This document shows positions 5,464-40,230 of a stretch of 64,000 bases of DNA, piece after piece; position 1 is the first letter of the stretch, and each line of letters opens with the position of its first letter. The position numbers were made by a program, and so were the translations under genes. The stretch comes from a virus (Duplodnaviria; Heunggongvirae; Uroviricota; Caudoviricetes): the IMG/VR virus record IMGVR_UViG_3300020156_000001, positions 170,321 to 234,320 of that record. One strand, given 5' to 3'. The notes beneath the pieces were generated by a model. That model did not search any database. It was given only the letters and a program-made list of their open reading frames with translations, and had not been told where the DNA came from.

Positions 5464-5555
5464 GTTGCCCATTTGGTCCGCGTGGAGGGAATCGAACCCT
5501 CTCAAGAACGCTAATCTGGCGCTAAAAGGCTTATAAGACCTCTCTGACTACCAAG
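5464..5555 (-). tRNA. tRNA-like gene, 92 nt with encoded CCA, long variable region, non-canonical D and anticodon arms
   Basis: Minus-strand reading CCGCGTG ... GAGGG-TTCGATT-CCCTC-CACGCGG-A-CCA. Perfect 7-bp acceptor and canonical T-arm. Possible anticodon loop CTTATAA (UAU) on a G·U-closed stem. The D-arm does not fold canonically. Confidence 0.5.
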
Positions 5556-5589
5556 TCTCACGCGGTTATAGTCGCGTCGACTGGATGCG

Positions 5590-16082: not shown

Positions 16083-16381
16083 ACGCAGATATTCTACATG
16101 CAAAAATTCAAAGCCTAACTTACCGTAATTGGTGCGGTGTGGGCTATTACAGTGGGTCGGGCTACAACAATAACAATGTGGAAGACGCAATGCGGGCAGC
16201 CGCAGCGCAAATCAATTCACAAATTGCGGCCAACGTAAACGACGCGATTCGTCACGTTCTTATGGAATTGCAGAACGCGATTGTAGAGGCCAGCTTTGAT
16301 GAAACTGCCGGCCTCTGCGGACTTTGCCGTCCAATGGATGGTGAATGTTTGCCGCCGGATTTTCGTCCAGTTAATCGTTGA
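16055..16381 (+). CDS. hypothetical protein (108 aa)
   Basis: ORF overlaps the Smr gene's 3' end by 28 nt. Confidence 0.35.
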   Translation: MAIMAKKVVDADILHAKIQSLTYRNWCGVGYYSGSGYNNNNVEDAMRAAAAQINSQIAANVNDAIRHVLMELQNAIVEASFDETAGLCGLCRPMDGECLPPDFRPVNR

Positions 16382-16901
16382 GATTTAGGGCGTCGATAAA
16401 TTCAATGCCATGTAGTTCACAACCTGGAAGAACCATGGACTTGAGATCATCAACAAGTGCGGTGAGCCCAAGCTCCTTACACTTGAGACCCTTCCAAACG
16501 GAAACTCCATTATAGAGTTCTTCATAGTGTTCAACAGTGACTTTGTGGTGTTTGAGGCCACGAAGCCACTTTTGTTCACTCTTTGAACCACGTTCGCCAA
16601 CTCTGCTTAGAAGTTCCCAGAAAGGAACCCCAAGTTCCTTTGGCATTCCGTGAACACCATGGAACATGGAAAGATCCATACCAAACGCCCCAATGTCTTG
16701 GGCGATCATATCAAAATCTCTGCCGTTGCGGAAAGTGACTAAGTGGAGTTCCACTTGCTTGTGGTGTTCCTCAACCCATCGCTGGAGAAAAAAGCTGTTC
16801 GGCCCATGGATAAGAGTTGAGTCGATATCCACTCCAATCGCTTTGTGAGCGTTTAGTTTTGGGTGGTAAAAGAAACTCTTGGGCGATTCTGCAAGTGTCA
16901 T
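16371..16901 (-). CDS. HAD-superfamily phosphatase-like protein
   Basis: N-terminal IGVDIDSTLIHG carries the HAD motif I DxDxT. Confidence 0.55.
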   Translation of the reverse strand: MTLAESPKSFFYHPKLNAHKAIGVDIDSTLIHGPNSFFLQRWVEEHHKQVELHLVTFRNGRDFDMIAQDIGAFGMDLSMFHGVHGMPKELGVPFWELLSRVGERGSKSEQKWLRGLKHHKVTVEHYEELYNGVSVWKGLKCKELGLTALVDDLKSMVLPGCELHGIEFIDALNLND

Positions 16902-16948: not shown

Positions 16949-17311
16949 CTACAGCCAAGCTAACCGAAACAAACTGGCATATTTGGCATCTTTGAACATG
17001 ATAACGCATTGGACGGCAAATGGCGGGCCATGGTAGTCGTTCATTTCAATCACATGCCAAGTCCAACTCATATCATAGCCAAAAGTACCGCAGTGTAAGC
17101 CAGTGTCTTTGATCCACTGCTTTACGTTGGATTTGAAATCCACAACAGAAAGAACCTGTTGGACATTTCTGGCCCTTACTCTTGAGCTATGGGACCATTT
17201 GTTGATCATGTCGTGTGTGTCGGGAGGAACATCGAAAAGTTTATCAAAATCATCAGCGTCATCCAAGATGAAAATAACGCCACCGCCTCTGTTTTGTGTT
17301 TTTACAGCCAT
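16949..17311 (-). CDS. LFKLRW-family small protein A (120 aa)
   Basis: C-terminus KYASLFRLAWL. Upstream KQWIKDTG. Confidence 0.55.
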   Translation of the reverse strand: MAVKTQNRGGGVIFILDDADDFDKLFDVPPDTHDMINKWSHSSRVRARNVQQVLSVVDFKSNVKQWIKDTGLHCGTFGYDMSWTWHVIEMNDYHGPPFAVQCVIMFKDAKYASLFRLAWL

Positions 17312-17619
17312 GCCAGTTTAAACACCAATGCTTTGTCATCCTGTGGTATCCACAACCGCAAGGCAACTTTTATTTCCATAGTCGACGCTGCCCATAACGC
17401 TTGCCAGGTAAAATTGCAATCCTGGGGATGCCAATTCATGTCGTCAAGCCACTCACTAAAATCGTCTTTAAGAGGTAGCTTGTCCAACATTGCTTGATGG
17501 AGTTTGACATCCGCATCAGTAAAATAATTGATACGATGGCTATTGAGAAACCAAAAGTATGGCTCAATATCAAAGAACGGTTCAGCGTGATAAAAATCGA
17601 AATTTTTTCTTAGAGCCAT
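17302..17619 (-). CDS. LFKLRW-family small protein B (105 aa)
   Basis: C-terminus DDKALVFKLAWL. SEWLDDMN. Confidence 0.55.
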   Translation of the reverse strand: MALRKNFDFYHAEPFFDIEPYFWFLNSHRINYFTDADVKLHQAMLDKLPLKDDFSEWLDDMNWHPQDCNFTWQALWAASTMEIKVALRLWIPQDDKALVFKLAWL

Positions 17620-17873
17620 CTCAGCTTAAACAGCATTGCAGTTTTACTATCGTCAAAAACTATCGATGGACCATCTTCGATGTTCTCATTGTTGTACGCA
17701 TACTTACTCTTGGCATTGGTTTCAAGCCATTCCTCAACTTCAGGATTCAAGAACATCAAGTCGCCACTGATCTCGACCGGTGAGCCACCGTAACATTTTA
17801 TATCCACAATCACATTGTCCTCAAACATATGATTGTGGTAAAACGTTTCGTACTCTTCGAGATAAAACAGCAT
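17610..17873 (-). CDS. LFKLRW-family small protein C (87 aa)
   Basis: C-terminus SKTAMLFKLRWL. EEWLETNA. Confidence 0.55.
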   Translation of the reverse strand: MLFYLEEYETFYHNHMFEDNVIVDIKCYGGSPVEISGDLMFLNPEVEEWLETNAKSKYAYNNENIEDGPSIVFDDSKTAMLFKLRWL

Positions 17874-18226
17874 TATTCACTCCACGTGAGTTTGAACAAG
17901 CTGGCTGCTTCTTTGCGGTAGAATCTCAAATAAAATGCGTGAACAATCATCTTGTTATAAAACGCATCATCCCAGTAACCCGAGTATAATGGCATGCCAT
18001 CTTCAGCAGTGGCGTGAGTTTCAAGCCACTCTTTTAGCTCCGGCCTTGCATAACTCATAGTGCGGGAAAATGACAAATCCCATGGCCATAAGCCATCATC
18101 ATATCCATCGGAAAAACGACCACTTGGTCCAATTGGACCAAGGTCGAATACCTTTTTGATATCTTTGGGTTCAAGCTGGATAATAAATTGCCCAGTTTGA
18201 TCTTCGCCTTTGTAGATCATGCCCAC
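17873..18226 (-). CDS. LFKLRW-family small protein D (117 aa)
   Basis: C-terminus KEAASLFKLTWSE. RPELKEWLETHA. Confidence 0.55.
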   Translation of the reverse strand: MGMIYKGEDQTGQFIIQLEPKDIKKVFDLGPIGPSGRFSDGYDDGLWPWDLSFSRTMSYARPELKEWLETHATAEDGMPLYSGYWDDAFYNKMIVHAFYLRFYRKEAASLFKLTWSE

Positions 18227-18474
18227 CTCAACTTGAACAGCAAGCGATCATTTTCCGTCTTGAACGCAATGGTTTCACAACTCGTATACGCGACTTGTAT
18301 ATTCTCGTCTGCAAGCCATTGTTTTAGTTCTGGTCGAACAACGTTGTCCCGTTGCGCGTTGTAAGTGGCACCGTTCCAAACCAATCTGGTTAACGTTTCG
18401 AATATCTTTTCCTGTGGAAATTCAAGTTCAAAAGGAAATTCCACTTCTCGATCGACCGTACTAAGCTGCATCAT
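18217..18474 (-). CDS. LFKLRW-family small protein E (85 aa)
   Basis: C-terminus ENDRLLFKLRWA. RPELKQWLADEN. Confidence 0.55.
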   Translation of the reverse strand: MMQLSTVDREVEFPFELEFPQEKIFETLTRLVWNGATYNAQRDNVVRPELKQWLADENIQVAYTSCETIAFKTENDRLLFKLRWA

Positions 18475-20005
18475 GTTCCAATTTCCTCAACATTGCAGTG
18501 GCCTTGTCCTTGTACAGGAACAAGGTTGCATAATCCACATTTGGGCCCAGATTTGCATGGGCCATCATAAAATCATTACCGGCTTCAACACTTTTTGCCA
18601 CAATTGGTTCCAACCGGTCCATAGCGATCTGCATCATCTCGTGCATATTGTGCCAGTAGGCGTAGCGGTCCTGTTCGTACTTGCTCCACGTGTAATGGGA
18701 AACTTCCCAAACATACAATTGGGACTTGTCGGGAAACACCTTATCAAAGTGCGCCAACATTTCCTCGCATGGATGATGACCCTGCGCCCAACGTGTTTTG
18801 AAGAACCGCAGGATCTGGCCCATTTGTGGACCCGGTTTAACGCCACGTGCCATCAGATCTTTACCAGTGATCGTAAAGCGATCGAACGTGCTGTTATAGA
18901 TGACTTGGTTATCTTGATCCAGCATTTTGAATGCGATGGTTGAGATAATGTTGGCTTGCGTGATATGCTCTGCAACCATTACCGCAGCAGCTTCTAATTG
19001 TGGATCCGAACCATTCGTAGTGTTCAAGTAGAAGTGACTTTGGATCGCTTCTACGCTATCGAATGGGCACGTCATGTAAAAGCTGATGATCTTGATCATG
19101 TAGTCGTAAGCACGACGCTCGCTTGAAGAAAACTTCAAACGTTCTGCCACAATTTCGTACGACTTTGGATCAATATTGCAGACCAACACTGCCATGACCA
19201 ATGCCTCAACCATAACGGGATGGCATCTCAGGCGATCTTCAAACCGCTTCATCGCCATCAAAATGGTATGGCCAACACGCCGATACTCTGGACCGTTGAT
19301 TGTTTCCCCGTTGCCCAGGGTTTCCATCAGCTTTGTGCCAAAGACCAACCTCAATGCGTCTCCCGCATGTGGCGCGGTCAGGATCTTTTTCAGTTCAGCC
19401 CAAATACGTTCACCGCTCAACCCACGCATACCCTCATGAACCCATGGCATGTTGAACAGCTGGTAGATGCTTTGTGGAGCCTCAGAAACAGCCGTCTTTG
19501 CAAAGAACCTCACATATCGCCAAACACGCAGGTAATCCTCACGAACACGTTCATTGGGATCACCAACAAACATGATAACACCGCGTTTCAAATGATCGCG
19601 ACCTTCAAAGTAGTCGTAGATGTGGCCGTTGATGTCCATGCTCATCGCGTTCATTGTAAAGTCGCGACGTTCTGCATCCAATTGGAAGTCTCGAGTGTAT
19701 TCAACCTTGGCATGACGGCCATCGGTTTCAACATCCACACGCAAAGTGGTAACTTCAAAGGGCTCACCGCCCATCATAAACGTTACCGTGCCGTGCTGCA
19801 AACCCGTTGGGATCACATACAAACCATGCTGTTCAGCCAGCGCCATCATTTCATCTGGCGTAGCATTGGTGCACAGGTCGATATCCTTTGGCTTCAAGCC
19901 CAAGCACAAGTCACGAACGGCGCCGCCAACAACACGAATTTCGTATCCGCTGTCGACGAAGATTTCCGCCAATTTCATCAAGTACCTGTTGTTGAATACC
20001 AACAT
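18461..20005 (-). CDS. class-II tRNA nucleotidyltransferase (CCA-adding enzyme / poly(A) polymerase family)
   Basis: Head-domain motif RVVGGAVRDLCLGLKPKDIDLCT (GGxVRD ... DxD). 514 aa with a long C-terminal body. Confidence 0.8.
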   Translation of the reverse strand: MLVFNNRYLMKLAEIFVDSGYEIRVVGGAVRDLCLGLKPKDIDLCTNATPDEMMALAEQHGLYVIPTGLQHGTVTFMMGGEPFEVTTLRVDVETDGRHAKVEYTRDFQLDAERRDFTMNAMSMDINGHIYDYFEGRDHLKRGVIMFVGDPNERVREDYLRVWRYVRFFAKTAVSEAPQSIYQLFNMPWVHEGMRGLSGERIWAELKKILTAPHAGDALRLVFGTKLMETLGNGETINGPEYRRVGHTILMAMKRFEDRLRCHPVMVEALVMAVLVCNIDPKSYEIVAERLKFSSSERRAYDYMIKIISFYMTCPFDSVEAIQSHFYLNTTNGSDPQLEAAAVMVAEHITQANIISTIAFKMLDQDNQVIYNSTFDRFTITGKDLMARGVKPGPQMGQILRFFKTRWAQGHHPCEEMLAHFDKVFPDKSQLYVWEVSHYTWSKYEQDRYAYWHNMHEMMQIAMDRLEPIVAKSVEAGNDFMMAHANLGPNVDYATLFLYKDKATAMLRKLEHDAA

Positions 20006-20119
20006 AATTCGATCTCCGTTTACAAGCTTAATCTAACACAGATAGCAAGTTTGTCAAACGCTAAAACCAGTTTCTGGAATGCAATAAATAGATGAAATTA
20101 TGTCCGGAGACCCGCTCTT

Positions 20120-23100
20120 ATGGCTTTAGTCAAACCACCAAATATCAAGTCACCTATTACAGTTAACGCTACTGGTGACACGCCTATCACAAAAACGTTT
20201 ATCGAATGGAAATCAAATAGCGCAACAGGATCGCTTGCTGCTACCAAGATCCAATACACGTTTTTGGGCTTGTCACCGTCAATTGGCGCGGTTACCAAGG
20301 GCGGCGCTCCTGTATTCCAATTCACACAAGCTGATTTGAACAGCCCGGGTGTTATCAACTACACGCCGGATCGTTCCAACAAGAAAACGCTTGATGTTGT
20401 GATGAGACTTCGTGTTACTGACCTAACAGATGGCGACAGTGACACTTTTCCAGTAACTATTCGTTACTCTCTTCCTGACTTGGCTCCAGAAGGTTCTGTT
20501 GGTCCGCTAACTGTTGAAGAAGATGGTCAAGCCACTGTAACAACGGCCCAGATCAACTTTGTCGATTTGTTTGACGCGCCAAACGCCGTGTTTATCGAAA
20601 TTCAAGCTTGGCCCGTACACGGTGATATGCTGTTCAATGGCAAGCTGGTTGGCCCAAGCAGTGCGGTTAAGATCACAATGGCTGATGTTATCGCGGGCAA
20701 GCTCGCATACAAGCACAATGGTGATGAAGCCACTGAAGACCACTTGTTCTTCAAGGTGCGCGATACAAAAAACAAATGGTCTGGTATCACAGTTGGCGAA
20801 CAAACCGAAGACGTAGCCAGCGTTTACGATATGCCAATCAATATCGTACTTTCCGATATTCCACTAAAGGTAGTCAACAAGGGGCCTGCTGAAGTTGTTC
20901 AGTGTGAAGAAGTTACGATTGGTCCGGAATTGCTATCCGCAGATGACGAAGATGATGGCGATCTAACACTGACTTGGAAACTGTCCAAGCTTCCACTCCA
21001 TGGTATCCTAAAGAAGAATGGCACCCCAATGACCGTGGGTACCACTTGGACTGATAGCGATATTAGCTCGGGCAAGATCACATACGAACAGGATTGCTCC
21101 GACACTCCAGTTGACACATTTGAGTTCTCTGTCGAACATTCCAAGGAAAAGCTGGAAAATGTTAGCTTTCCAATCCAGCTGATCAAGAATCTTCCGCCGG
21201 TTATCGAAATCAACGAACTACAAGTTGAAAAGTGTAACACTGGTATTCCTGCTGAAGTTAACATCAAGATCACCGATCCTGAAGGTTTGCTGCCAAAGGA
21301 TATCAAGCTCAAGTATGCGCCAAACACACCAGAGACTCCGCGTCCTAAACATGGTATGATTGGTATCAACGGTAAGACTGGTATTCCAGGTGTAACAGAA
21401 TTCACATACGCTGATATTCTAGCTGGAAATGTCCACTACATTCACGATTGCACGGATCACGATCCCGCAACTGATGAGTGGTGGTTTACTGTTTATGATG
21501 GTGGCCACGAAATCACTGTAAAGCTTCCAATTGTTATCATCTTTAAGGATGACCTTCCTCCCTACTTGACTCAAAACGTTGAGCATTTTGTTGAGCGCAA
21601 CGATGAAGTTTCTTGGAAGATTGACAAGCTAGACTTTACCGACGATGACACCGAATATCCAAAGGTATTCTTTGAACTGGTAACACTACCCGAACATGGC
21701 GAGTTGTTTATCAACGGTCTTCCTGCAGCGGAAGGTCAGAAGATCGCACGTTCGGATTGGGATGATATCGAGTTCCGTTATGTTGCTGGTGCGCCCGACA
21801 ATTCGGTCACAGAAGACCGCGCAATGTTCAAGCTCTACGATGAGAAGAACACTGTGGACGATCTTGCTATTGTGTTCAAGTTCCCACCACCGCCTACGGT
21901 TTGCCCAGAAGTTCTCAACAACTTTATCACAACCGCTTACACGTTGAAGAAAGTAATTTCTGAAATCGACATGTTTGCGTCAAACGAAGGCATTGATTCC
22001 ACTGAATTCGTTTGGACTCTCAAGAAAGCTCCCGTATATGGTGACCTAAGCGTGGGCACGGTTAAGTTGGTTGATGTTCTTCCAACAAAGCCAGATCCAG
22101 CTGACCCGCCAGTGGCGAATACTTGGACGTCCAAGGATATTGAGGACATGCAGTTCTCGTATCAACACCTACGTGATGCTCCGTTTACTGATGAGTTTGA
22201 GTTCTCAGTAACCAACGGCTTCTGCGCGGTTCAAGGCAAAGCAATCATCAAGTTCATCCCAGGCTTGAACATTGATATCAACAAGGTTCTCGAAGTTGAT
22301 CAAGGCTTTACCCCATCGGTAACTCCTGGTCTTATTGACGAAACCTACTTGCTCAGCAGTTCTGGATCTGTTTCGGATCCAGGTCTACTCCTGTACACGG
22401 TAAAGACATTGCCTACAGTTGGTACATTGTATTTGGATGATTACCCAGTTGCACTAAGCGCGACTTCCTACACGTTCTCACAACAGCAAATCAACGATGG
22501 TAAGCTCCGTTACGTACCAAATGATTCCAATCATGAAACTACTGAGGACTTGTTCAAGTTTGAAGTTGTTGATGGTATTGAAAAGCGTGAAGGCGTATTC
22601 AAGATCAAGATCAAGCTTTTGGATACTCCGCCGGAAATTATCATCAACGAACTGGTTGTGGGTGAGCTAACTTGTGGCAGCATTCTGGAAGTTAAGCATT
22701 TGAAGGTAGAGGACGATCAGTCCAGCCCAAGTGAACTTGTGTTTACGCTACTCTCAATTCCACAGTATGGTGAGCTACTAAAGAGCAACGTACCAATGGC
22801 AATCGGCGATACATTCACTTATGGTGATGTTATCAACGGTGCTATGGGCTATTGTGAAACTGAAGAAGGTGCCCTGCTTGACTCGTTTGACTTTACCCTT
22901 ACCGATAAGGGCGGTAATGAAGTAACACCACTTCACTTCCCAATTAAGATCATTCCTCCGCCACCACCGGAGCTTGTAAATGATGGTCTTACAATGGAAC
23001 CTTGCACGGTTCGCGCAATCACAATCAACATGTTGGATGTGAAGAACTTGCGCACCACATTCAATCGCGCGGGTATGGTGTTCAAGGTAACAAAAGCTCC

Positions 23101-23773
23101 AAAGCATGGCGTTCTCAGCAAGGGCGCGGTAGCATTGGCTGTTGGGGATACTTTCACACTTGCGGATCTTCTCGCTAATACCGTCACATACACCAGCATC
23201 TCGTTTAAAACAGATCCTGATTCCTTTGACTTTGATGTACAAAGCGATGTGTTTACTTCCAAGGGCAACACGTTTGATATCAAGCTACGTGCCGTAAACA
23301 ATCCACCTTGGATTTGTGTAAACACGGGTATGTTGGTATTCGAACAGGAAACCAAGGCAGTAACTCTGGACATGCTACAGATGTGCGATGTGGATATGGA
23401 CCGTGATAAGATTGCGGACTTTGATCCAGAAAGTGCAGAAGACCTTTCTCCACTGGTTTATCCGCTTGGTGAAGTTATCAACCCATCGGAAGTCGATGGC
23501 AGTGGTCGCATAAACAAGGATGTTCTCATCGAGTTCCCAGGTGTTAAGTACAAGTTCACGTTTACTGTAAAAGCGGGTTCTGCCCGTGCTATTGTTCGTG
23601 ACCAAAATGGTGCCACACTTGCAAGCTCGATCTGTGCAACATCAGCAAGTGGCGTGGTTGTTATGGAGTTTAGTCCTCCAGTCAGCAGCACACAGATCAA
23701 TTGCCAAGTAATTGAAAATTGTGTCCCAGGTGCAGTTGATCCGGATTGGACATTTGACCTCGCAAAAGCCTAA
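20120..23773 (+). CDS. giant repeat protein (1217 aa) with about 10 cadherin/VCBS-like beta-sandwich repeats
   Basis: A roughly 100-aa unit recurs with the pattern G.[ILV].Y.[HP] ... D.F.F.V.D ... [ILV].[ILV] ... PP.[ILV]. Examples: GKLRYVPNDSNHETTEDLFKFEVVDG ... IKIKLLDTPPEIIINE and GKITYEQDCSDTPVDTFEFSVEHS ... IQLIKNLPPVIEINE. Confidence 0.7.
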   Translation: MALVKPPNIKSPITVNATGDTPITKTFIEWKSNSATGSLAATKIQYTFLGLSPSIGAVTKGGAPVFQFTQADLNSPGVINYTPDRSNKKTLDVVMRLRVTDLTDGDSDTFPVTIRYSLPDLAPEGSVGPLTVEEDGQATVTTAQINFVDLFDAPNAVFIEIQAWPVHGDMLFNGKLVGPSSAVKITMADVIAGKLAYKHNGDEATEDHLFFKVRDTKNKWSGITVGEQTEDVASVYDMPINIVLSDIPLKVVNKGPAEVVQCEEVTIGPELLSADDEDDGDLTLTWKLSKLPLHGILKKNGTPMTVGTTWTDSDISSGKITYEQDCSDTPVDTFEFSVEHSKEKLENVSFPIQLIKNLPPVIEINELQVEKCNTGIPAEVNIKITDPEGLLPKDIKLKYAPNTPETPRPKHGMIGINGKTGIPGVTEFTYADILAGNVHYIHDCTDHDPATDEWWFTVYDGGHEITVKLPIVIIFKDDLPPYLTQNVEHFVERNDEVSWKIDKLDFTDDDTEYPKVFFELVTLPEHGELFINGLPAAEGQKIARSDWDDIEFRYVAGAPDNSVTEDRAMFKLYDEKNTVDDLAIVFKFPPPPTVCPEVLNNFITTAYTLKKVISEIDMFASNEGIDSTEFVWTLKKAPVYGDLSVGTVKLVDVLPTKPDPADPPVANTWTSKDIEDMQFSYQHLRDAPFTDEFEFSVTNGFCAVQGKAIIKFIPGLNIDINKVLEVDQGFTPSVTPGLIDETYLLSSSGSVSDPGLLLYTVKTLPTVGTLYLDDYPVALSATSYTFSQQQINDGKLRYVPNDSNHETTEDLFKFEVVDGIEKREGVFKIKIKLLDTPPEIIINELVVGELTCGSILEVKHLKVEDDQSSPSELVFTLLSIPQYGELLKSNVPMAIGDTFTYGDVINGAMGYCETEEGALLDSFDFTLTDKGGNEVTPLHFPIKIIPPPPPELVNDGLTMEPCTVRAITINMLDVKNLRTTFNRAGMVFKVTKAPKHGVLSKGAVALAVGDTFTLADLLANTVTYTSISFKTDPDSFDFDVQSDVFTSKGNTFDIKLRAVNNPPWICVNTGMLVFEQETKAVTLDMLQMCDVDMDRDKIADFDPESAEDLSPLVYPLGEVINPSEVDGSGRINKDVLIEFPGVKYKFTFTVKAGSARAIVRDQNGATLASSICATSASGVVVMEFSPPVSSTQINCQVIENCVPGAVDPDWTFDLAKA

Positions 23774-23782
23774 GGAGCTAGG

Positions 23783-24904
23783 ATGACTGCTTATTTTAAG
23801 ATCCACAAGCTTCCCGCTCTAGGCTTGCTTATGAAAAATGGAATCCCACTTCAGGTGGGATCCAAGTTCACTCAAAGCGATATCAACGAAAATCGTATCA
23901 CTTATCGTCACACTGCGATAACTGGTCAGAACGCATTGGACTCGTTTGATTTTACGCTTTGGGATTCCGAGCTTGGTGCCATTACAACTTCCTCTTATGG
24001 TCCATGTATGCCACCTAGAGATATTGAAACCCCTGCTGATGGTGTGTTTCGTTTTGCTATCTCTATCCTAAATGTGCCACCGATCAACACGGTTACACCG
24101 GATACGCTTGAACTGCTTGAAACCGAAACCCTTACTTTGACAATGGGTATCTTTAACGTGGTCAACGCGGGATTTACTCCTGATCAAGTTATCCACACCC
24201 TGCGCAAGCCACTATCTCACGGATATATCACATTGCGCGGTAAACGCTCATCCACGTTTACTCAAGCCGATGTAAATGCAGGTGACGTAAAGTATGTGAA
24301 CACGCACGTAGGCACTGGTATCGAACGTATTGAAGTAACATCATGCAACTTGCGTAGCGGCTGCATTGATTTTGATTTTACCATCAACATTTTGGAACGT
24401 TTCAAGATTACCGGCGACAACGTTATCTACGTAAAGACGGGCAGCCGTTTTGTTTGGGAATTTACAGCAAATCGTCCATCAGTGCTTTGGTCACTATCCG
24501 GTGGAACTGAGGAACGTCCACCATATGCAACGGAACGTGACCTCTCAATCATAGGTTGGTCTTCCTATGCAATGTCAAGCGATCAACCCTATGATAGCGA
24601 AGGCCGTGGTCCGGGTTATGATAAGTTGTTCCGCAACGTAAGAGAGACATTGTATTGGGATGGTGGGCTTCCAAAGGGAATATATTTGAGCAACATTGGT
24701 TACATGACCTGCTCACTTCGTAACCCGCCAAGTCTTGCAGGAAGCCAACATTGGACAATCCCAAACACTCCGGGTGAATATCCGTTTGAGATGATTGCCT
24801 TTGATGCCACAACTGGCCAAATGGATTCCCGTAAATATATGCTAGTCGCGACCATGTCTGGTTTCAGCGGCAGTGGCCTAAGCTCGGAAAGTAAAGATCT
24901 ATGA
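23783..24904 (+). CDS. repeat protein (373 aa) with cadherin/VCBS-like repeats
   Basis: NRITYRHTAITGQNALDSFDFTLWD and GDVKYVNTHVGTGIERIEVTS. Stop overlaps the next gene's start. Confidence 0.65.
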   Translation: MTAYFKIHKLPALGLLMKNGIPLQVGSKFTQSDINENRITYRHTAITGQNALDSFDFTLWDSELGAITTSSYGPCMPPRDIETPADGVFRFAISILNVPPINTVTPDTLELLETETLTLTMGIFNVVNAGFTPDQVIHTLRKPLSHGYITLRGKRSSTFTQADVNAGDVKYVNTHVGTGIERIEVTSCNLRSGCIDFDFTINILERFKITGDNVIYVKTGSRFVWEFTANRPSVLWSLSGGTEERPPYATERDLSIIGWSSYAMSSDQPYDSEGRGPGYDKLFRNVRETLYWDGGLPKGIYLSNIGYMTCSLRNPPSLAGSQHWTIPNTPGEYPFEMIAFDATTGQMDSRKYMLVATMSGFSGSGLSSESKDL

Positions 24905-27900
24905 ATTTACACGAACACGCCGTCATTGAAGAATATGACAAGTACGCGATCTTTGAATTGACCAAGATTCCAACACGTGGTAACCTGCTTTTGGATGGCG
25001 TTATCATGAAGGTTGGTAGTCGCTTTACTCAAGGCGATCTACGTAACGGTAATCTCAAGTACAAGCATACGGCAAACGAAGGTATGGCCAAGATCGCTTA
25101 TGATGCGTTCTTCTTCAGAGTTCCAATCAATGACAAAGCTGTTGTTGATGAAAACACCAAGTACAGCAAATGTTTGCCTGTAAGTGGTGGCCCAAAGGGC
25201 GGTGAATTTAAGTTCCCAATTATCATCACTGTGCTTCCTTATCCTCAGGAACTTCGCAATGTTGAAATAAACATTATGGAAGACCAAACAGTTTGCTTGA
25301 ACAAAGGTCACTTGTTCTATTCTTCTGATACAAAAGAAGTTCAGCAGTATTTTAAAAAGCCTGATGTTCAGATTGAAAAGGGCGGCAACGAAGCTTTTTA
25401 CTTTTGGAAGCGTTTTGCTGGCGATGTAAGCTTTGAAAACGTAAGCAAAAATGCCCCACCAAGCAGTGATGCCCACACTTGGGCATATAATGCGGAAACC
25501 CGCGGCATCTACAACATCAAGAATACTTCCAACTACACTGGTATGGTAACAACTAGAACCAGTGAAAGCTTTATGATGGCTTCTACAATGAGTTCCAATG
25601 CGGCGGATGACGACGTTATTGGTATGGTTGTAGCTTATGCGGAAGAAGATGGCGTTCCTACCACAATCAGCGTTGTTCGTTCCGGTGGCTGGAATGGAAC
25701 CGGTGCAAGTACCCTTACTTGGGCTATTATCCAAACCAAGGGCAACAATCGTACTATTCTAAAGAACGGAAGCGATACAGCTAAGAACCTATTGGGTAAC
25801 ACCAAGGGCCAAGCTTGGGACAAACTTGGATATTCACGTGTTGAGGTAAAGCGCGAAGGTACTAAAATTATTGCCAAGTGCAGCCAGTTTAGCGGCGCAA
25901 CAAATGGCGCACCAAATGCGGTAACTGCAATCGATGATTCCACAACTATGGAATTCACATTGCCCGCACCATTTAACTTGCCTTGCCAATACGGTCTAAG
26001 TGCGATGTCTCAGGCCGGCGCCACATTTGATGATATTGAATGGGCTGAGTTGCCTTATCCTCCGGCAGATCCACCAGAGCCGGATCCTACTTTGGATCCT
26101 ATGTTCGAACGTTTTCCAATTACCTATACCGTAAGCAGCAAGTCGAGCGAAGCATCCGCTGAGTTCCTTCTCAACGGAAAGCCGATGAAGCCCGGCGATA
26201 CCTTTACAAATGGTGACATATCAAATGGTTTGATTTGCGTAAAGGGCAAAAACGCAGGCGCTGGTGCAGAGTTCTTCTCTTTCTCAGCATGTGTGAACTC
26301 GGTAAAATGCACAAGCGGAACATTCAAGGTTAAGGTAACTCCTTGGCCATATCCAAAGATGGAAAAGAATTCCGCTACTATGGAAGAATGCTCGGAAATC
26401 ACAATCAACGATAAGAACATGTTGTTCACAGTTGAATTTGGTTCCACTGATTCCGATATCAAGATTACTCTTAATGAAACGCAAACAGCCGCTGACAATC
26501 CAGATGGTCGTGTCGAGGTTATTCCTAAGACATTCACTATGGCCGATGTTAAGGCTGGCACAGTACGACTCAAGCACGCTTGTGATACTGTGGTGTGGAC
26601 TGAAAAGCTTACATTTGATGTATGCACGAACCACAATAAGTGCGTGAGCAAGCCATTCTACGTTAAGATCACTCCAATCCCAGTTGAAGAAGAGCCTGCA
26701 CCCGATAACATTCAAGTTAGCGAACAGGGTTGCGTTTACAAGCTAAACTTCTACGGTGTTTGGGCTCCAGTTGGTGATTGCGGTCTTTGGGCTGATCTAA
26801 AGGGTCGCGTATTGCCTGAGCCTAAAAATGAACCCACTGGTAAGATCCTATACGTAAAGCACGCGCTTCCTGAACCCGTAACTTTGGTTGCTTTGCCAAA
26901 GCCAGAGAAACCAACTGAAAACAAGTGGTTTAAGAGTCCAGTTCAACTGCCTGCACAACCTGAACCATCAGATGGTTGTGAGCCGTTGCCACCGGAACCA
27001 ACACCAGCCCAGCTACCAACCGAGCTACAAGACTACATTATTGAAATGGAAGCTTGGGGTGATTATGGTGCAGGTCCTCCACTGTTTGACGTTATTGCAA
27101 CACAAGCCGTTGGTGGTATGAAGTGGATTGCCCGTGATGAACCAATCTCCGATCTAAAGGAGCATGGTCAAAAGGGTCGTCAATACTTTAGCTGGCGTGT
27201 TCCTGCGGCAGTTTGGGGCAATGGTCGTGACATTGTTATCGACTATGTTCAAAACGAACCTCCTGGTGCCGCAACAGACCGTAACATGTACTTGTACTGG
27301 GTAAAGGTCAACGGTAAGCTTTATGACTTTGGCGGTTCTGGCCGTTATATTGATCGTGCGGATGTTGAACGCCGTGGTCTAAACTATGACCATTGCCGTT
27401 GGACTATTTCGGATGATTTCCCTCTCCCACCATACCAGCTTCCTGCTCCAGTACCTGCGGAAAAGCCTGATACAGTTGCCAAGCAAAAGGTTCCTGCAAA
27501 ATGCTTTACTGATCCAAAGACCGGTACTAAGTGGATCACAGACCAAAACGGTGTATATCATCCAGTTGGAAAGCCAACGGATAAGTTGGAAGACTTTGAT
27601 GCTACCCCGCTTATCAAGACTCAACCATTCCTAGTTGAAGTGGAAGATCTTGCAAGTGTTCCAGCGGAATGGCCTGGTCCGGTTCTACACAAGCCAACAA
27701 ACAGCGTTTACACGAAGGTCAACGACGAATACGTTCACGTAAAGCAGCCGTTTACTGAATCTTATAAGCTGGATGAATTCCAGTTTATTGGAGCCAACGA
27801 GTTCTGGCTACAGCATGGCGCAACGTTTGACTTCTTCTTGTTCAGCAACCGCTTCTACGTGCGTTTCGATATTATGGGTGAATATGGTCACTCGATTATC

Positions 27901-28866
27901 GAACAATCCAACCCGATCATCATGGATCTTGGTGGATCGTTGGTTGGTAGTGGTGCAAGCATTTTGGGCAATCGTACAAACAACTACAATAACCAAAACC
28001 GCACATCACGCATTCCAAATGCGATGGGAATGTGGCCACGTCGTTACTGTCAGGTGGTTTCGCCAATCACTACAATGTGGGACGGTATGATCCAAAACAG
28101 CACAAGCATGCCATACTATCATGACAGGAACAACAATGGTATGAACCCATACCATCACGGCACTTACTTGATCAAGCTCGCGGGTACTGAATCCTATGCA
28201 GGCTTTGTTGCAAGTCAGCGTCCAAAGTTGGTACCCGAGCGTTGGACCGGAACAAAGTTCTGGAACCCTGATACAAAGAAGGGCTTTGGTCTAGTAAAGA
28301 ACCAAAAGGTTTGGCATGATATGACCACTGTTTGGTCACACAGCGGCTATGGTAGTGCTCCTAGCCAGATGGAAGGTGTTCGTAACAACGGTTATGGTAC
28401 TCACACACAGGCTATTGCCTACGGTGGTATCGAATTTGGAACTTATAATCCTTGGCTACATTTTGAGTCTTGGAAGATTCCTCAGAACACTGCATTCAAC
28501 CCACCGGAAGCTCCACGTGGTTGGTGCAATGGTATGCTTACGTTCCTAGATTACTCCTCAATCTACGACTCCAAGGAAATGCGCAATGGTGGTCCTGTTG
28601 AATCATCTCCACCGCGTAAGGACTACACAATGGAGTTCAAGGTTCGCGGTTATGATATCGCAACAGGCGAGGAAAAGTTCCGCACGTATCGCGTTCACTG
28701 GAACGCAACGGGTACGAACAAAAAGGGACAAACAAAGGCAACCACAGATGCAACGACGACAGGACTAACTGGATTCCTGCCGCCGAAGCCAAAGACAGCG
28801 GTTTGCTACTTTGATGACTTTAACGTCCCAGGCAACTGCCGTATTTTGGACGATAAAGGAAAGTAA
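24901..28866 (+). CDS. giant protein (1321 aa): N-terminal cadherin/VCBS-like repeats plus a distinct W/Y/G/N-rich C-terminal half
   Basis: GNLKYKHTANEGMAKIAYDAFFFRV at the N-terminus. The C-terminal 600 aa is non-repetitive and aromatic-rich. Confidence 0.65.
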   Translation: MNLHEHAVIEEYDKYAIFELTKIPTRGNLLLDGVIMKVGSRFTQGDLRNGNLKYKHTANEGMAKIAYDAFFFRVPINDKAVVDENTKYSKCLPVSGGPKGGEFKFPIIITVLPYPQELRNVEINIMEDQTVCLNKGHLFYSSDTKEVQQYFKKPDVQIEKGGNEAFYFWKRFAGDVSFENVSKNAPPSSDAHTWAYNAETRGIYNIKNTSNYTGMVTTRTSESFMMASTMSSNAADDDVIGMVVAYAEEDGVPTTISVVRSGGWNGTGASTLTWAIIQTKGNNRTILKNGSDTAKNLLGNTKGQAWDKLGYSRVEVKREGTKIIAKCSQFSGATNGAPNAVTAIDDSTTMEFTLPAPFNLPCQYGLSAMSQAGATFDDIEWAELPYPPADPPEPDPTLDPMFERFPITYTVSSKSSEASAEFLLNGKPMKPGDTFTNGDISNGLICVKGKNAGAGAEFFSFSACVNSVKCTSGTFKVKVTPWPYPKMEKNSATMEECSEITINDKNMLFTVEFGSTDSDIKITLNETQTAADNPDGRVEVIPKTFTMADVKAGTVRLKHACDTVVWTEKLTFDVCTNHNKCVSKPFYVKITPIPVEEEPAPDNIQVSEQGCVYKLNFYGVWAPVGDCGLWADLKGRVLPEPKNEPTGKILYVKHALPEPVTLVALPKPEKPTENKWFKSPVQLPAQPEPSDGCEPLPPEPTPAQLPTELQDYIIEMEAWGDYGAGPPLFDVIATQAVGGMKWIARDEPISDLKEHGQKGRQYFSWRVPAAVWGNGRDIVIDYVQNEPPGAATDRNMYLYWVKVNGKLYDFGGSGRYIDRADVERRGLNYDHCRWTISDDFPLPPYQLPAPVPAEKPDTVAKQKVPAKCFTDPKTGTKWITDQNGVYHPVGKPTDKLEDFDATPLIKTQPFLVEVEDLASVPAEWPGPVLHKPTNSVYTKVNDEYVHVKQPFTESYKLDEFQFIGANEFWLQHGATFDFFLFSNRFYVRFDIMGEYGHSIIEQSNPIIMDLGGSLVGSGASILGNRTNNYNNQNRTSRIPNAMGMWPRRYCQVVSPITTMWDGMIQNSTSMPYYHDRNNNGMNPYHHGTYLIKLAGTESYAGFVASQRPKLVPERWTGTKFWNPDTKKGFGLVKNQKVWHDMTTVWSHSGYGSAPSQMEGVRNNGYGTHTQAIAYGGIEFGTYNPWLHFESWKIPQNTAFNPPEAPRGWCNGMLTFLDYSSIYDSKEMRNGGPVESSPPRKDYTMEFKVRGYDIATGEEKFRTYRVHWNATGTNKKGQTKATTDATTTGLTGFLPPKPKTAVCYFDDFNVPGNCRILDDKGK

Positions 28867-34380: not shown

Positions 34381-34797
34381 CTAGCATATGAATGAAGCGT
34401 CATAATCGCTGACTGTGGTTGGAAACTCACATATTATTTTAAACATCGCAGCATCGCGTGGGCTTTTGAAAATAAAGCCTAAGTATGTACCTGTAGTGGG
34501 TCCTTTGTCACAAGGAAAGGTGCCCCATATGGGGTAGGCAACATCTTCGAAATTTTCAGTATAGCTGGCGAGTTTTGAGAAGTGATGTTCATGAAAACAC
34601 ATATTCTCAAAATCAGGAATAGAGAATGCACTCATATGGTCGCACAAATATTGGCTGGTCAAGTTTAGCTCATATTTGCACAAGCGATAAACCCGCATAT
34701 AGGGGCGGGTTTCGCATTCATCGTCTGGCACATAACAATGATGACGGATACCACCATTGTTAGCTATTTGGAACATTACAACCTTGTAAGTGTCCAT
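34381..34797 (-). CDS. hypothetical protein (138 aa)
   Basis: Intact ORF, Cys/His-rich. Confidence 0.45.
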   Translation of the reverse strand: MDTYKVVMFQIANNGGIRHHCYVPDDECETRPYMRVYRLCKYELNLTSQYLCDHMSAFSIPDFENMCFHEHHFSKLASYTENFEDVAYPIWGTFPCDKGPTTGTYLGFIFKSPRDAAMFKIICEFPTTVSDYDASFIC

Positions 34798-36537: not shown

Positions 36538-37255
36538 AGTTTATAATCCGGCAAGAGAACCAATTGTGGATGAGCTATTCGCGTTGATGACAGCGGCTCA
36601 ACCCGATGAAGCTTTGCTTGCCGAATATAAGCTGATGTTTCAAAGCATGAGTGCGGTAAACCCTTACACGGGCTTGTTTACCAATCCTCGTGCTTGCGAA
36701 GTCGATCAAGCCAAAAACGATGTTGGTGAGATTATCGAGGACATCAAAGATAACCCTGAACTACCCGATGATCTCACTCCTCCACTTGAAGATGCCATTG
36801 ATTATTTGGACCAATACAAGGAACACACTGATCGTTTGATTGCAAACTTTCCAGTGATTTCCTCTATCGTACAAAGCGAGATTGGTAACAAAGTTGCTGA
36901 GCTACAGGGCGCAAACCCTTGCTTGCAATTCGGCGATATCATGGGCAGCATTTTGAAAGCTGGCCAGGATATTATCAATCAAATCCTAGCCATGCTGGCC
37001 GACCTTAAAAACGCGGTAAAAGAAGAGCTTGAGGAAATGATCAAAGAAGCCATTAACAAACTAATGGCAGCGATTGCAGCGGCAATGGCCCAACTTCAAG
37101 AAGAAGTACAAAAGATTGCCGAAGCCATGCTCAACATGAACAAGATGAATTTGGCTCAAGTGATGAAGTACCAAATGCAGGACCCTTGCCTAAAACACAT
37201 TATGAGTGGAGTTCTCACTGGTGCAGCACAATCAGCCCTAGCAGGAGCAAACTAA
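36509..37255 (+). CDS. hypothetical helical protein (248 aa)
   Basis: Intact ORF. Its stop overlaps the PAAR start (TAATG). Confidence 0.5.
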   Translation: MATDSTRSSEVYNPAREPIVDELFALMTAAQPDEALLAEYKLMFQSMSAVNPYTGLFTNPRACEVDQAKNDVGEIIEDIKDNPELPDDLTPPLEDAIDYLDQYKEHTDRLIANFPVISSIVQSEIGNKVAELQGANPCLQFGDIMGSILKAGQDIINQILAMLADLKNAVKEELEEMIKEAINKLMAAIAAAMAQLQEEVQKIAEAMLNMNKMNLAQVMKYQMQDPCLKHIMSGVLTGAAQSALAGAN

Positions 37256-37539
37256 TGCCAGGCGCAGCTCGTCTCACAGATAAATGCACAGGTCATGGAT
37301 GCTTTCCAAGCCGTCCAAACACCGCAGCAAGCAACGATGTTTTTACAAACGACCTTGGTGCACATCGTCAAGGTGATGCTTGGCGCACTCACACTTGTAC
37401 GGGCAGTCATGGTGGAAACCTAGCCAGTGGTTCTCCAAACGTGTTTATCAACGACAAACAAGCGGGTCGTATTGGTGATCCCGTAAGTTGTGGTTCAAAA
37501 GTCCGCACAGGTTCGGATAACGTTTTTATCAATAATTGA
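37255..37539 (+). CDS. PAAR-repeat protein (spike tip, T4 gp5.4-like)
   Basis: MPGAARLTDKCTGHGCF ... GDAWRTHTC ... SPNVFINDKQAGRIGDPVSCGS ... GSDNVFIN shows the PAAR repeats and Cys/His zinc ligands. Confidence 0.75.
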   Translation: MPGAARLTDKCTGHGCFPSRPNTAASNDVFTNDLGAHRQGDAWRTHTCTGSHGGNLASGSPNVFINDKQAGRIGDPVSCGSKVRTGSDNVFINN

Positions 37540-37589
37540 CTTGGAACTTTTGCCTTTGTATGGTTTGCTAAACAAAGCAAAGGTGAATT

Positions 37590-38177
37590 ATGATTGCACT
37601 TCTTCAAATTTTGGGAGTTTTTGCAGCGGCATTGGGTTTTGCCGCAGCACTTACAAACCATCTCTTCCTAGGGATTCTCTTCCCAATCGGCGCCACACTC
37701 TTTTACATTGGCTATGTTCTGCGCAACCGTGCAACTGAACGTACCATTAGGGAAGCGCAAGCGGATGTTCGTACCCGTTATCCCGTTACTTCCATCTATC
37801 GTCCAATCGCGGCCACTGGTATGACCACACCACCGCCAATGCCAAACAAAACACCACGCCGTAAAGATGCACCGCTTCGTTCCGCAGTTATGTTGGATGA
37901 TGAACGCAAACGCCAGCAGCGTGATGAAGAAGAGCGTGATCGTCAGCGTCGCAACAATGACACCGTTTATACGGATAATTCGGCCGGCTGGATGATGATG
38001 ACTGGTGCGATGGATAACAGCCGGAATGATGATGACGATCGCAAAGTTGTAACTCCCTCATACAGTGAACCCAGCAGCTCAAGCAACGATTCCTATAGTA
38101 GCGGTTCCGATGGCGGCTATTCCGGTGGCGGCTATTCCGGTGGCGGTGATGGCGGTGGCGGAGGTGGTGGCGACTAA
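37590..38177 (+). CDS. membrane protein with Gly-rich C-terminal tail
   Basis: Two N-terminal TM helices. Basic/acidic central region. C-terminus SDGGYSGGGYSGGGDGGGGGGGD. Confidence 0.5.
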   Translation: MIALLQILGVFAAALGFAAALTNHLFLGILFPIGATLFYIGYVLRNRATERTIREAQADVRTRYPVTSIYRPIAATGMTTPPPMPNKTPRRKDAPLRSAVMLDDERKRQQRDEEERDRQRRNNDTVYTDNSAGWMMMTGAMDNSRNDDDDRKVVTPSYSEPSSSSNDSYSSGSDGGYSGGGYSGGGDGGGGGGGD

Positions 38178-38183
38178 AAGGTT

Positions 38184-38212
38184 GACATCTCTAGTTGGGT
38201 CTGTTTAAATAC
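38184..38212 (+). promoter_or_regulatory. sigma70-like promoter (TTGACA-17-TTAAAT) for the tmRNA precursor
   Basis: The -35 and -10 hexamers with 17-nt spacing lie directly upstream of the acceptor-piece sequence. Confidence 0.5.
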
Positions 38213-38221
38213 GGATGAAGC

Positions 38222-38281
38222 TGTTGATACAATCTCAATAGTTGCTGCAGGACTGGGGAGCGTTACCCCACGCCTCCACCA
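38222..38281 (+). ncRNA. ssrA: two-piece (permuted) tmRNA, 3' acceptor piece, ending ... CGCCUCC-A-CCA
   Basis: UGGGG-AGCGUUA-CCCCA hairpin (T-arm analogue) at 38254..38270. Acceptor 3' strand CGCCUCC at 38271..38277. Discriminator A. Encoded CCA at 38279..38281. The 5' boundary is approximate. Confidence 0.75.
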
Positions 38282-38383
38282 CAAGCAGATGCGCACTTTC
38301 GTGCGTGGCGGGTAAACGGTTAAATCCAATCCGGCGGGCACCGAGCGGTGTCCTGGTAGCGGTCGCTACAATCTGCTTATGAT

Positions 38384-38563
38384 GGGGGCGAAGTAGGATC
38401 GACTGGGCGACGAACGGTGCGAGTAGGTTTCCGGCATGATACCGCCGTTATCGGGTCGAAAAAAGTAAATGCAAACGATAACTCCGTTGCATCCCAGCCG
38501 GTAGCTCTCGCTGCCTAAGTTGGATGAGCTTTAGTGGATACGCTTGGAAACAGGACCACTCTT
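38384..38563 (+). ncRNA. ssrA: two-piece (permuted) tmRNA, 5' coding piece with tag reading frame ANDNSVASQPVALAA*
   Basis: 5' end GGGGGCGAAGUAGGAUCGACUGGG closely matches canonical tmRNA 5' ends. GGGGGCG pairs with the upstream CGCCUCC, including a G3·U wobble. Tag ORF GCA AAC GAT AAC TCC GTT GCA TCC CAG CCG GTA GCT CTC GCT GCC TAA at 38471..38518. Confidence 0.85.
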
Positions 38564-38588
38564 AAAACCGGCTTCGGCCGGTTTTTTG
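38564..38588 (+). terminator. intrinsic terminator (CCGGC-UUCG-GCCGG + U6)
   Basis: GC hairpin followed by TTTTTT. Confidence 0.8.
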
Positions 38589-38607: not shown

Positions 38608-38850
38608 ATGTCTCGTATCACTTATACTGACTACCACGCACGTGGTTTTTACTTGACTTGGTACGTTGTGTTATTAGGGTCGGACGCTTACTTCTATGAG
38701 TACGAAGTGGCCGAAAGCATATGGGACCACTTAAATACGCAAACAACGGATGATTGGTGTGTTTGCACTAGGCTTGATGTCTGTCTCAGCACATACATCA
38801 GCTTTAAAAATAAGCATGATGCATTGGTGTTTAAGCTGGCGTATGGTTAA
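38608..38850 (+). CDS. LFKLRW-family small protein F (80 aa)
   Basis: C-terminus KHDALVFKLAYG. Confidence 0.5.
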   Translation: MSRITYTDYHARGFYLTWYVVLLGSDAYFYEYEVAESIWDHLNTQTTDDWCVCTRLDVCLSTYISFKNKHDALVFKLAYG

Positions 38851-39872: not shown

Positions 39873-39876
39873 ACTC

Positions 39877-40230
39877 ATGGCTAAGATCGTTGTTGTTGAG
39901 GATGAGTCTTTGATTCTTATGGTTGTGGTGGATCTTCTAGAAGAATTGGGGCATGAAGTGGTAGATTTTGTAAATGCGGAAACCGCGCTCAACTATATTG
40001 GCAAAGGCAATCAATTCGACATTCTCATGACGGACATGAATCTTCCAAAGATGAGTGGTCGTGAGCTTGCAGAGCAATTGCGGGAACTAACTCCGGATCT
40101 GCCCGTTATCTTTGCAACCGGTTATGTTATCGGCCGGGATGACCGCCTCAGCGCACCATTTTCCTGCGTAAGCAAACCCTATTGGTCTGATAATTTGAAA
40201 ACCGCCATAGGTGAGGTTTGGACAAAGTAA
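39877..40230 (+). CDS. single-domain response regulator (CheY-like receiver)
   Basis: KIVVVEDESLILMVVVD ... DILMTDMNLPKMSG ... PVIFATGY gives the receiver Asp pocket, the phospho-acceptor D in MTDMNLP, and the T/K positions. Starts 5 nt after the kinase stop. Confidence 0.8.
   Translation: MAKIVVVEDESLILMVVVDLLEELGHEVVDFVNAETALNYIGKGNQFDILMTDMNLPKMSGRELAEQLRELTPDLPVIFATGYVIGRDDRLSAPFSCVSKPYWSDNLKTAIGEVWTK

Follow-up and report, generated by a model that had tools for sequence, protein, structure and literature searches.

A large and hitherto uncatalogued family of small jumbo-phage proteins, with a conserved C-terminal core and a predicted alpha-beta-beta-alpha fold

What kind of protein is encoded by five short, overlapping genes that follow one another on the minus strand of a phage genome, and whose products differ greatly from each other except that all end in nearly the same residues? 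The genes in question occupy positions 16,949 to 18,474 of a 64,000-nucleotide stretch of viral DNA (positions 170,321 to 234,320 of the IMG/VR record IMGVR_UViG_3300020156_000001), and this whole stretch is called the window below. A sequence-only reading had described them as a tandemly amplified array with a conserved C-terminal module and hypervariable N-termini, and had linked this pattern with anti-defence, immunity or specificity-determinant families under diversifying selection. Comparisons of sequence give good support to a different and broader conclusion: the array belongs to a new, large, phage-specific family of small soluble proteins (median about 87 amino acids [aa]) that had not been catalogued before. 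The functional role of the family is a guess, which is discussed after the evidence for the family itself.

The genes and their shared ending are real. The five minus-strand open reading frames (ORFs) are present as described, with overlaps of 1-14 nt, and three further members lie between 38,608 and 40,760; all eight (77-120 aa; w1 to w8 in Table 1) end in [LVM][FY][KR]Lx[WYF]. When ORFs of at least 50 aa were scanned for [LIVMF][FYLM][KR][LIVM]x[WYF] no more than five residues from the end, the eight members and one other ORF were found in the window, compared to 0.46 on average and at most 2 in 100 shuffles. A profile hidden Markov model (HMM) of the core, with 71 positions and built from 142 non-redundant cores (mostly from other phages, some window sequences included), matches all eight with E-values of 4e-15 to 1e-3 among 1177 six-frame ORFs, and unambiguously identifies them as true members of one paralogous family that share a conserved C-terminal module. 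The N-terminal halves are indeed divergent, and pairwise BLAST among the eight gives weak matches that are mostly confined to the final 15-20 residues. They are not unrelated, however: w1 to w5 and their relatives can be aligned over the full length, and w1 is modelled as a single domain (see below).

The breadth of the family was revealed by a degenerate DNA pattern and not by protein searches. A search of phage and metagenome databases for the terminal motif, which had been suggested from the sequence alone, was productive in this form: the pattern for DAMLFKLxW matches 66 IMG/VR loci, and a control pattern with the same codons reversed matches none. Across bacterial and archaeal genomes (596 Gb) there are six matches, approximately the number expected by chance; only two of these matches are at a C-terminus (in Rhizobium and Novosphingobium), and both look prophage-borne. 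Over 94 occurrences of DAMLFKLxW, Ala is encoded by all four of its codons, Leu by all six, and Asp, Phe and Lys each by both, arguing that conservation acts on the protein and not on the DNA. The repetitiveness itself, and nothing more, might lead one to suspect an artefact, either a repeated regulatory or recombination element mistaken for coding sequence or a collection of spurious ORFs. This possibility is refuted by the free variation at synonymous positions, by the empty reversed control and by the ratios of nonsynonymous to synonymous substitution (dN/dS) given below; the ORFs are also conserved, syntenic and under purifying selection, and yield a confident structure prediction, so that the probability left to an artefact is negligible.

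Iteration of the HMM over 730 kb of loci collected 215 ORFs. The motif ends one residue before the stop codon in 107 of them and within 8 residues in nearly all, and the variable tail that follows the motif Trp has 0-24 residues. One locus (L059, on a contig of 416,714 bp) has 16 members in 10.8 kb, another (L041) has 11 in 8.4 kb and a third (L023) has nine. A scan of the whole genome of Sinorhizobium phage Phosso (PV764938.1; 469 kb), the nearest relative of the window at the protein level, found at least 54 ORFs at E <=0.01, arranged in 31 runs; these make up about 8% of the 735 annotated features, and all those checked are labelled hypothetical protein. Phosso is the only cultured phage in which members were detected by tblastn with single members or the family consensus. 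The other carriers include contigs that share genes with the lineage of the window, other T4-like contigs with a family-B DNA polymerase, an NAD-dependent ligase or a gp46-like ATPase, and a contig tied by its RNA ligase to Acidovorax phage ACP17. No members are found downstream of the ligase of ACP17, which is the nearest cultured relative of locus L008 by this enzyme.

An apparent prophage on a scaffold of Rhizobium sp. 2MFCol3.1 (L077, 2928-5658) contains five consecutive small genes; IMG/VR locus L064 has the same member. Because the C-termini of the prophage proteins grade from canonical (DAMLFKLTWDGGAA, SAMLFKLSYGGGEA) to degenerate (LLAKLSQQ, FLVAKLRLSV, ANEVKLANG), the HMM may not capture the full extent of the family. 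Two further ORFs of the window, listed in Table 1 as possible ninth and tenth members, give weak matches to the core HMM.

The sequence-only reading could not match these proteins to a known domain, and neither could we. The eight window proteins have no match in Pfam, PHROGs v4 or PADLOC, ten canonical IMG/VR members have none in Pfam or PHROGs, and the prophage members have none in NCBIfam or Pfam; PHROGs was searched with its annotated anti-CRISPR and anti-restriction families included. Over the more than 30 members scanned against curated libraries, the best E-values were 0.01-0.3, to unrelated families, and Pfam revealed no fusions to known domains in the larger members. A core profile of 44 sequences gives nothing significant among 177,635 PDB sequences (best E 0.4), no clear fold match was found in the PDB, and the only matches from Foldseek against BFVD are marginal (E 0.02 or weaker) and lead to small proteins, themselves uncharacterised, of uncultured phages. 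With three different alignments, searches of a word-indexed protein database returned 12, 8 and 29 matches, all unannotated, from an index that is too coarse for such divergence. A full-length profile HMM run against 1.84 billion representative proteins returned 16 matches at E <=1e-3, a small number because a short motif cannot gain significance at that database size. A literature search with the motif strings found no papers in the collection covered, and the family is not mentioned in the paper on Agrobacterium phage Atu_ph07, in a paper on Sinorhizobium jumbo phages or in a survey of jumbo phages.

The conserved part of these proteins is predicted to be a core of about 50-60 residues with the order alpha-beta-beta-alpha, built on Trp and Phe. 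From an alignment of 15 sequences, AlphaFold2 models w1 as a confident single domain (predicted local distance difference test [pLDDT] 87, about 95 over the motif; predicted template-modelling score 0.78) with the order b-b-a-a-a-a-b-b-a: strands at 4-8 and 11-16, four helices, strands at 81-89 and 98-106, and a final helix at 109-119. The fourth helix (61-70) carries the upstream "WL" element, and the C-terminal motif corresponds to the last strand and last helix. The model of w7 is confident only in its C-terminal half (pLDDT about 80; helix 47-67, strands 72-75 and 81-84, helix 87-97), and shares with that of w1 the arrangement of helix, hairpin and helix.

The compact signature of the core is W[LC]...W...FxF...DAMLFKLxW. 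Conservation was calculated from the 142 cores, which have less than 50% mutual identity, and the resulting percentages are to be read as biased upward (see below). The first helix reads [ED][LIVM]xxW[LC]x[ED][NH][ILV]G, with Trp in 94%; this is the [KE][EQ]WL element that had been picked out from the window alone, and it proves to be the second most conserved feature of the family. The first strand has Trp or Tyr in 73%, and the second strand has [FIV]xF with Phe in 88%, followed by an x(4) spacer and DAMLFKL[TRA]W. In the last helix the frequencies are D (64%), A (99%), M, L, F (99%), K (87%), L (100%), [TRA] and W (86%). The conserved positions are thus nearly all aromatic or aliphatic, together with the Asp that starts the last helix and one Lys; no residue of catalytic type is conserved across these cores, and there is no conserved surface patch and only one conserved basic residue. 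Since the conserved positions are almost all hydrophobic and none is of catalytic type, we infer a small non-enzymatic fold in which the C-terminal motif would be part of the hydrophobic core, as opposed to a signal peptide, a degradation tag or a DNA repeat.

A nine-residue motif that is extremely conserved beside poorly conserved sequence, and that stands at the C-terminus, might also be a recognition tag on otherwise unrelated proteins, such as a degradation tag or docking motif for a phage Clp system or a packaging signal. Phosso does encode ClpP, ClpX, ClpS and two further Clp-family ATPases, and on a hand-drawn helical wheel the hydrophobic residues are not confined to a single face, which would fit an interface. 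However, AlphaFold2 predicts that the motif lies in the folded core as a strand and a helix, and its confidence is highest there. The motif is always accompanied by the upstream Trp helix and the hairpin, arguing that it is part of a domain; the tail of up to 24 residues after the Trp is unlike terminal tags, and w1 to w5 can be aligned from end to end. A tag is very unlikely on these grounds.

Two known folds deserve comparison. The first is the PCD/DCoH-like fold (beta-beta-alpha-beta-beta-alpha), for which acRAF (PDB 4LOW chain B) is the best representative; the 142 cores contain no well-conserved His column that could correspond to the active-site His of pterin dehydratases, and positions bearing His do so in only 7-15%. 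The second is the double-stranded RNA-binding domain (alpha-beta-beta-beta-alpha), to which the family shows neither a match with Pfam dsrm nor a fold match.

The paralogues of the window are ancient and not recently amplified, judging from the syntenic counterparts that Phosso keeps at both clusters. Its five-gene array has the same flanks as in the window, a CCA-adding tRNA nucleotidyltransferase (CCA enzyme) and a gene like those for polynucleotide kinase (PNK), with one counterpart per gene, and any reading of the array as a recent tandem amplification therefore fails. Three of the five counterparts are clear and extend over nearly the full length (ph500, ph501 and ph502 for w4, w3 and w1; gp500 to gp502 in Table 1), with a divergence about equal to that of the neighbouring CCA enzyme, which is 41% identical over its full length. 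For w5 the similarity to ph499 is limited to the last 35 residues, and that of w2 to ph503 is weak (26% over 66 aa, E 0.005); w2 is also weakly related to the relatives of gp503 (P0003, P0007, P0008 and P0010). The order of the last two genes of the array appears to be swapped between Phosso and the window. Two further relatives, L003 (from a compost metagenome) and L005, have four genes at the CCA-proximal site, and Atu_ph07 has no members beside its CCA gene. The second cluster is likewise syntenic, with Phosso gp479, gp478, gp476 and gp475 located between a PAAR protein and the tail fibre.

Selection on the family was measured as pairwise dN/dS by the Nei-Gojobori method, for the 22 homologue pairs with unsaturated synonymous sites. 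The values range from 0.01 to 0.46 with a median of 0.14, and so the proposed diversifying selection on the N-termini is not borne out. Between Phosso (L001) and L003, the array genes have pN/pS of 0.19-0.49, and the CCA gene together with the array forms a block with far greater divergence than the nearby PNK-like, Smr and PTPS genes (pS 0.63-0.90 for the block versus 0.20-0.61 for the latter, which are 88-97% identical in amino acids). Because this excess extends to synonymous sites, it suggests that the block has been exchanged by recombination and has a mosaic ancestry.

These results bear directly on the idea of a recently amplified anti-defence or immunity cassette whose N-termini diversify under selection. 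Tandem, divergent small proteins in the accessory regions of lytic phages are typical of counter-defence genes, and the greater divergence of the array and CCA gene relative to PNK, Smr and PTPS could be taken as a second argument. However, counterparts have been kept gene for gene across phages whose CCA enzymes are only 41% identical, the dN/dS values are low, and the excess divergence is found at (saturated) synonymous sites as well, which points to mosaic ancestry instead of rapid protein evolution. Furthermore, PADLOC gave no match, and the neighbours include no consistently recurring toxin or defence gene; those in the window are the CCA enzyme, the PNK-like gene, a tmRNA, a kinase/regulator pair and a tail fibre. 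We consider a recently amplified cassette distinctly unlikely.

Table 1. Family members and other features of the window. Core HMM E-values are from the scan of six-frame ORFs described in the text.
Feature	Position	Strand	Description
w1	16949-17311	-	120 aa; ends KYASLFRLAWL; core HMM E 9e-8; 34% identical to Phosso gp502
w2	17302-17619	-	105 aa; ends DDKALVFKLAWL (...LVFKLAWL); core HMM E 1e-3; identical to database protein P0004
w3	17610-17873	-	87 aa; ends SKTAMLFKLRWL (...MLFKLRWL); core HMM E 4e-15; 46% identical to Phosso gp501
w4	17873-18226	-	117 aa from GTG at 18226; ends ...SLFKLTWSE; core HMM E 9e-10; 34% identical to Phosso gp500
w5	18217-18474	-	85 aa; ends NDRLLFKLRWA; core HMM E 3e-10; 43% identical over 35 aa to C-terminal part of Phosso gp499
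w6	38608-38850	+	80 aa; ends HDALVFKLAYG; core HMM E 3e-8; type shared with Phosso gp478 and gp479
w7	40218-40517	+	99 aa; TTG start; ends HDAMLYKLRFLT (...MLYKLRFLT); core HMM E 3e-7; counterpart Phosso gp476
w8	40527-40760	+	77 aa; ends AEAMVFKLRYN; core HMM E 3e-6; 34% identical to Phosso gp475
Possible ninth member (weak)	34381-34797	-	138 aa; motif YLGFIFKSPRDAAMFKIIC about 16 aa before stop; core HMM E 1.2e-3 among 1177 ORFs; no Pfam match
Possible tenth member (weak)	46698-47453	+	251 aa; family-like module near C-terminus (ANILLFKSRRELMLFKLVC); core HMM E 0.014; no Pfam match
CCA-adding tRNA nucleotidyltransferase	18461-20005	-	first gene of operon; Pfam PolyA_pol 1e-30; known domains end at about residue 405
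Extension of CCA enzyme	18461-18790	-	about 100 aa; ends in degenerate family motif ATLFLYKDKATAMLRKLEH, FxF/Y-K-x-K-D-x-A-M-x-x-K-L
Last gene of operon	16371-16901	-	176 aa; DxDxT motif (DIDST, read from sequence); Phosso gp504 annotated polynucleotide kinase; no Pfam match
Sigma-70-like promoter match	20030-20057	-	TTGACA, 16 nt, TAGATT, with TG; just upstream of CCA start codon
tRNA-Ile(TAT)	5474-5565	-	unusually long at 92 nt; Phosso annotation has tRNA-Ile(tat) of 93 nt
Cadherin-repeat gene block	20120-28866	+	1217-aa protein with seven Cadherin_3 repeats (E 2e-83), then ORFs of 373 and 1321 aa
PAAR-motif protein and following gene	37186-38177	+	PAAR motif (E 1e-11); then 195-aa protein with N-terminal hydrophobic stretch and Ser/Gly/Asp-rich low-complexity tail
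tmRNA	38164-38564	+	two-piece (permuted), alphaproteobacterial type; tag peptide ANDNSVASQPVALAA; Rfam alpha_tmRNA 107 bits, tmRNA_permuted 113 bits
Histidine kinase and response regulator	38913-40230	+	PAS-HWE kinase (319 aa) and single-domain regulator, between w6 and w7
Conserved protein	40757-41212	-	151 aa; between w8 and tail-fibre gene; Phosso orthologue gp474; no Pfam match

The setting of the five-gene array provides the main hints about its use. The array is probably co-transcribed, early and from a host-type promoter, with the CCA enzyme and a phosphatase-like protein; early expression is suggested by the tight operon behind the sigma-70-like promoter match. Within the operon, w4 more likely starts at the ATG at 18220 (115 aa) than at the GTG, because this ATG forms an ATGA overlap with the w5 stop codon and because the database gene call P0014 begins MIYKGED. 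The CCA enzyme itself may contain a fused family member. Its C-terminal extension is common to the enzymes of the window, Phosso, L003 and L005 and is missing from that of Atu_ph07 (421 aa). The statistics for this relationship are weak, with an hhalign P of 0.0017 and core HMM scores of 13-15 bits for the L003 orthologue, 6.6 for that of Phosso and about 1 for the window.

Members also adjoin translation and tRNA-repair genes elsewhere. In Phosso, 6 of 18 such genes have a member within 150 bp, compared to a mean of 1.9 when positions were shifted around the circular map (P=0.008 in a post hoc test); the six are an RNA ligase, two peptidyl-tRNA hydrolases (PTHs), the CCA enzyme, the PNK-like gene and a threonyl-tRNA synthetase. 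In L008 a kinase and a T4-type RNA ligase 1 are followed by about ten tandem members, and in L066 two members precede a PTH2 gene. We treat this adjacency as a lead and not as a result. The expansion of the family in Phosso is set in a genome that encodes IF-1, IF-3, RRF, ribosomal protein S21, peptide deformylase, three PTHs, four aminoacyl-tRNA synthetase genes and dozens of tRNAs.

The reading that we favour, with a probability of roughly 0.4, is that the members are early accessory binding proteins built on one scaffold and used either in host takeover or in guarding the translation and tRNA apparatus of the phage. Each paralogue would be a non-enzymatic binder in which the scaffold is fixed and both the surface and the N-terminal additions vary. 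Because the paralogues are old and individually conserved, each would probably have its own partner. The proposed arena, which is host takeover or the shielding of phage translation, possibly by binding host factors that attack it, is suggested by the finding that members adjoin tRNA-repair and translation genes more often than expected by chance.

The adjacency could instead mean that the domain works as a module associated with RNA or tRNA, or as an accessory subunit of the phage's own tRNA-repair and translation enzymes (CCA enzyme, PNK, RNA ligases, PTH and aminoacyl-tRNA synthetases), and does not bind host proteins at all. The neighbours in Phosso, L008 and L066 fit this alternative, w6 begins just after the phage tmRNA gene (the tmRNA ends about 45 nt before the w6 start), and the CCA extension, with the degenerate motif at its end, aligns at the same position in four orthologues and is absent from Atu_ph07. 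On the other hand, the isoelectric points (pI) of seven of the eight window proteins are acidic to near-neutral (4.3-6.5), and the core has a single conserved basic residue and no conserved surface patch. The adjacency test was post hoc, and many arrays are without such a neighbour, including those of L059, L041 and the 95-100 kb region of Phosso. An RNA-associated module is unlikely in view of these observations. The acidity of the window members also raised the idea of DNA mimicry, which is not general and was rejected: the median pI of the family is 6.0, and 29% of the members are basic.

Several considerations also weigh against early binding proteins as the explanation. No homology points to any function, and charge varies so widely in the family (29% of members have a pI above 8) that it gives no hint of a common ligand. 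The association with translation genes was spotted first and tested afterwards, and the CCA and PNK genes flank one and the same array and so are not independent. Members and translation genes both reside in accessory regions of the genome, which inflates the adjacency signal, and no members at all lie at 420-440 kb, where the tRNA genes of Phosso are densest. The promoter is a consensus match only, from a scan that overall was not enriched over shuffles. Finally, the sample of cores was seeded with the exact string DAMLFKLxW, which biases the conservation percentages upward, and the AlphaFold2 alignments were shallow (15-18 sequences).

A bolder version of binding on one scaffold is possible, though doubtful. 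A phage-only scaffold present in more than 50 paralogues per genome, in a lineage of jumbo phages from soil and freshwater, could be a toolkit of binders in which each paralogue neutralises another host factor, especially factors that attack tRNA or translation. Such a toolkit would explain why members are found beside the CCA enzyme, RNA ligases, PTHs, a tRNA synthetase and the tmRNA. If correct, it would define a new and widespread class of phage counter-defence or takeover proteins, which would have been missed so far because the class is nearly absent from cultured phages, Pfam and PHROGs.

Known systems provide partial parallels. The SUKH/SMI1-KNR4 immunity proteins are small, non-enzymatic alpha/beta proteins that occur in tandem arrays of divergent paralogues, in viruses as well. 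The present family resembles such arrays in size, tandem layout and divergence of the paralogues, but it has no Pfam match and no adjoining toxin gene, and bacterial chromosomes essentially lack it. Small early genes, normally unrelated orphans, occupy the variable regions of T4-like phages. Like these, the members are short and tightly packed with start/stop overlaps, and lie between core genes and among tRNA genes; unlike them, one homologous family fills such regions here.

A lineage-specific expansion of a small protein has been described in Bacillus phage G, which has about 35 copies of a zinc ribbon (PMC7824862). As in that case, a jumbo genome carries dozens of one-domain paralogues, many of them in tandem, whose function is inferred from context alone. 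The family described here has another fold and no metal ligands, and it is absent from that survey (PMC7824862). It is also not limited to a single genome: carriers are numerous among uncultured T4-like and jumbo phages, and a few alphaproteobacterial genomes have it too.

With a signature, a profile and a predicted fold now defined, hundreds of orphan genes can be grouped at once. The family is worth the attention: about 8% of the features annotated in a phage of 469 kb belong to it, and dozens of jumbo and T4-like phages that have not been cultured carry it as well, yet it is invisible to the standard libraries tried. Phosso can be cultured on Sinorhizobium meliloti, and so provides a tractable system for the many small early genes of jumbo phages. 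If the link to tRNA repair and translation is real, it bears on the question of why jumbo phages carry a translation apparatus of their own.

Several features indicate that the window is part of a jumbo myovirus related to Phosso that infects an alphaproteobacterium; this view is based on the gene content and on the alphaproteobacterial type of the permuted tmRNA. The genes include those for the CCA enzyme, a PTPS (QueD-like) protein, Smr, a giant cadherin-repeat protein, a PAAR protein, a tail fibre with a collar domain, and the PAS-HWE histidine kinase with its response regulator. At the DNA level, Megablast found no match to the region among 50,697 deposited phage genomes. A metagenomic contig of 480,361 bp carries database copies of the window proteins, and Atu_ph07 (490 kb) is the second-nearest relative at the protein level.

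The kinase and regulator genes that separate w6 from w7 are read as an insertion or a loss, since the corresponding site of Phosso has family members and neither gene. A functional tie between the family and this pair was rejected for the same reason. The regulator probably starts at the ATG at 39877. Related kinase and regulator genes are found near family members in L066 and L056. The PAAR protein and the 195-aa protein that follows it correspond to the Phosso pair gp481 and gp480. The cadherin-repeat block is transcribed divergently from the CCA operon, with the same layout in Phosso, L003 and L005, and the Atu_ph07 orthologue of the cadherin-repeat protein carries the annotation "putative internalin".

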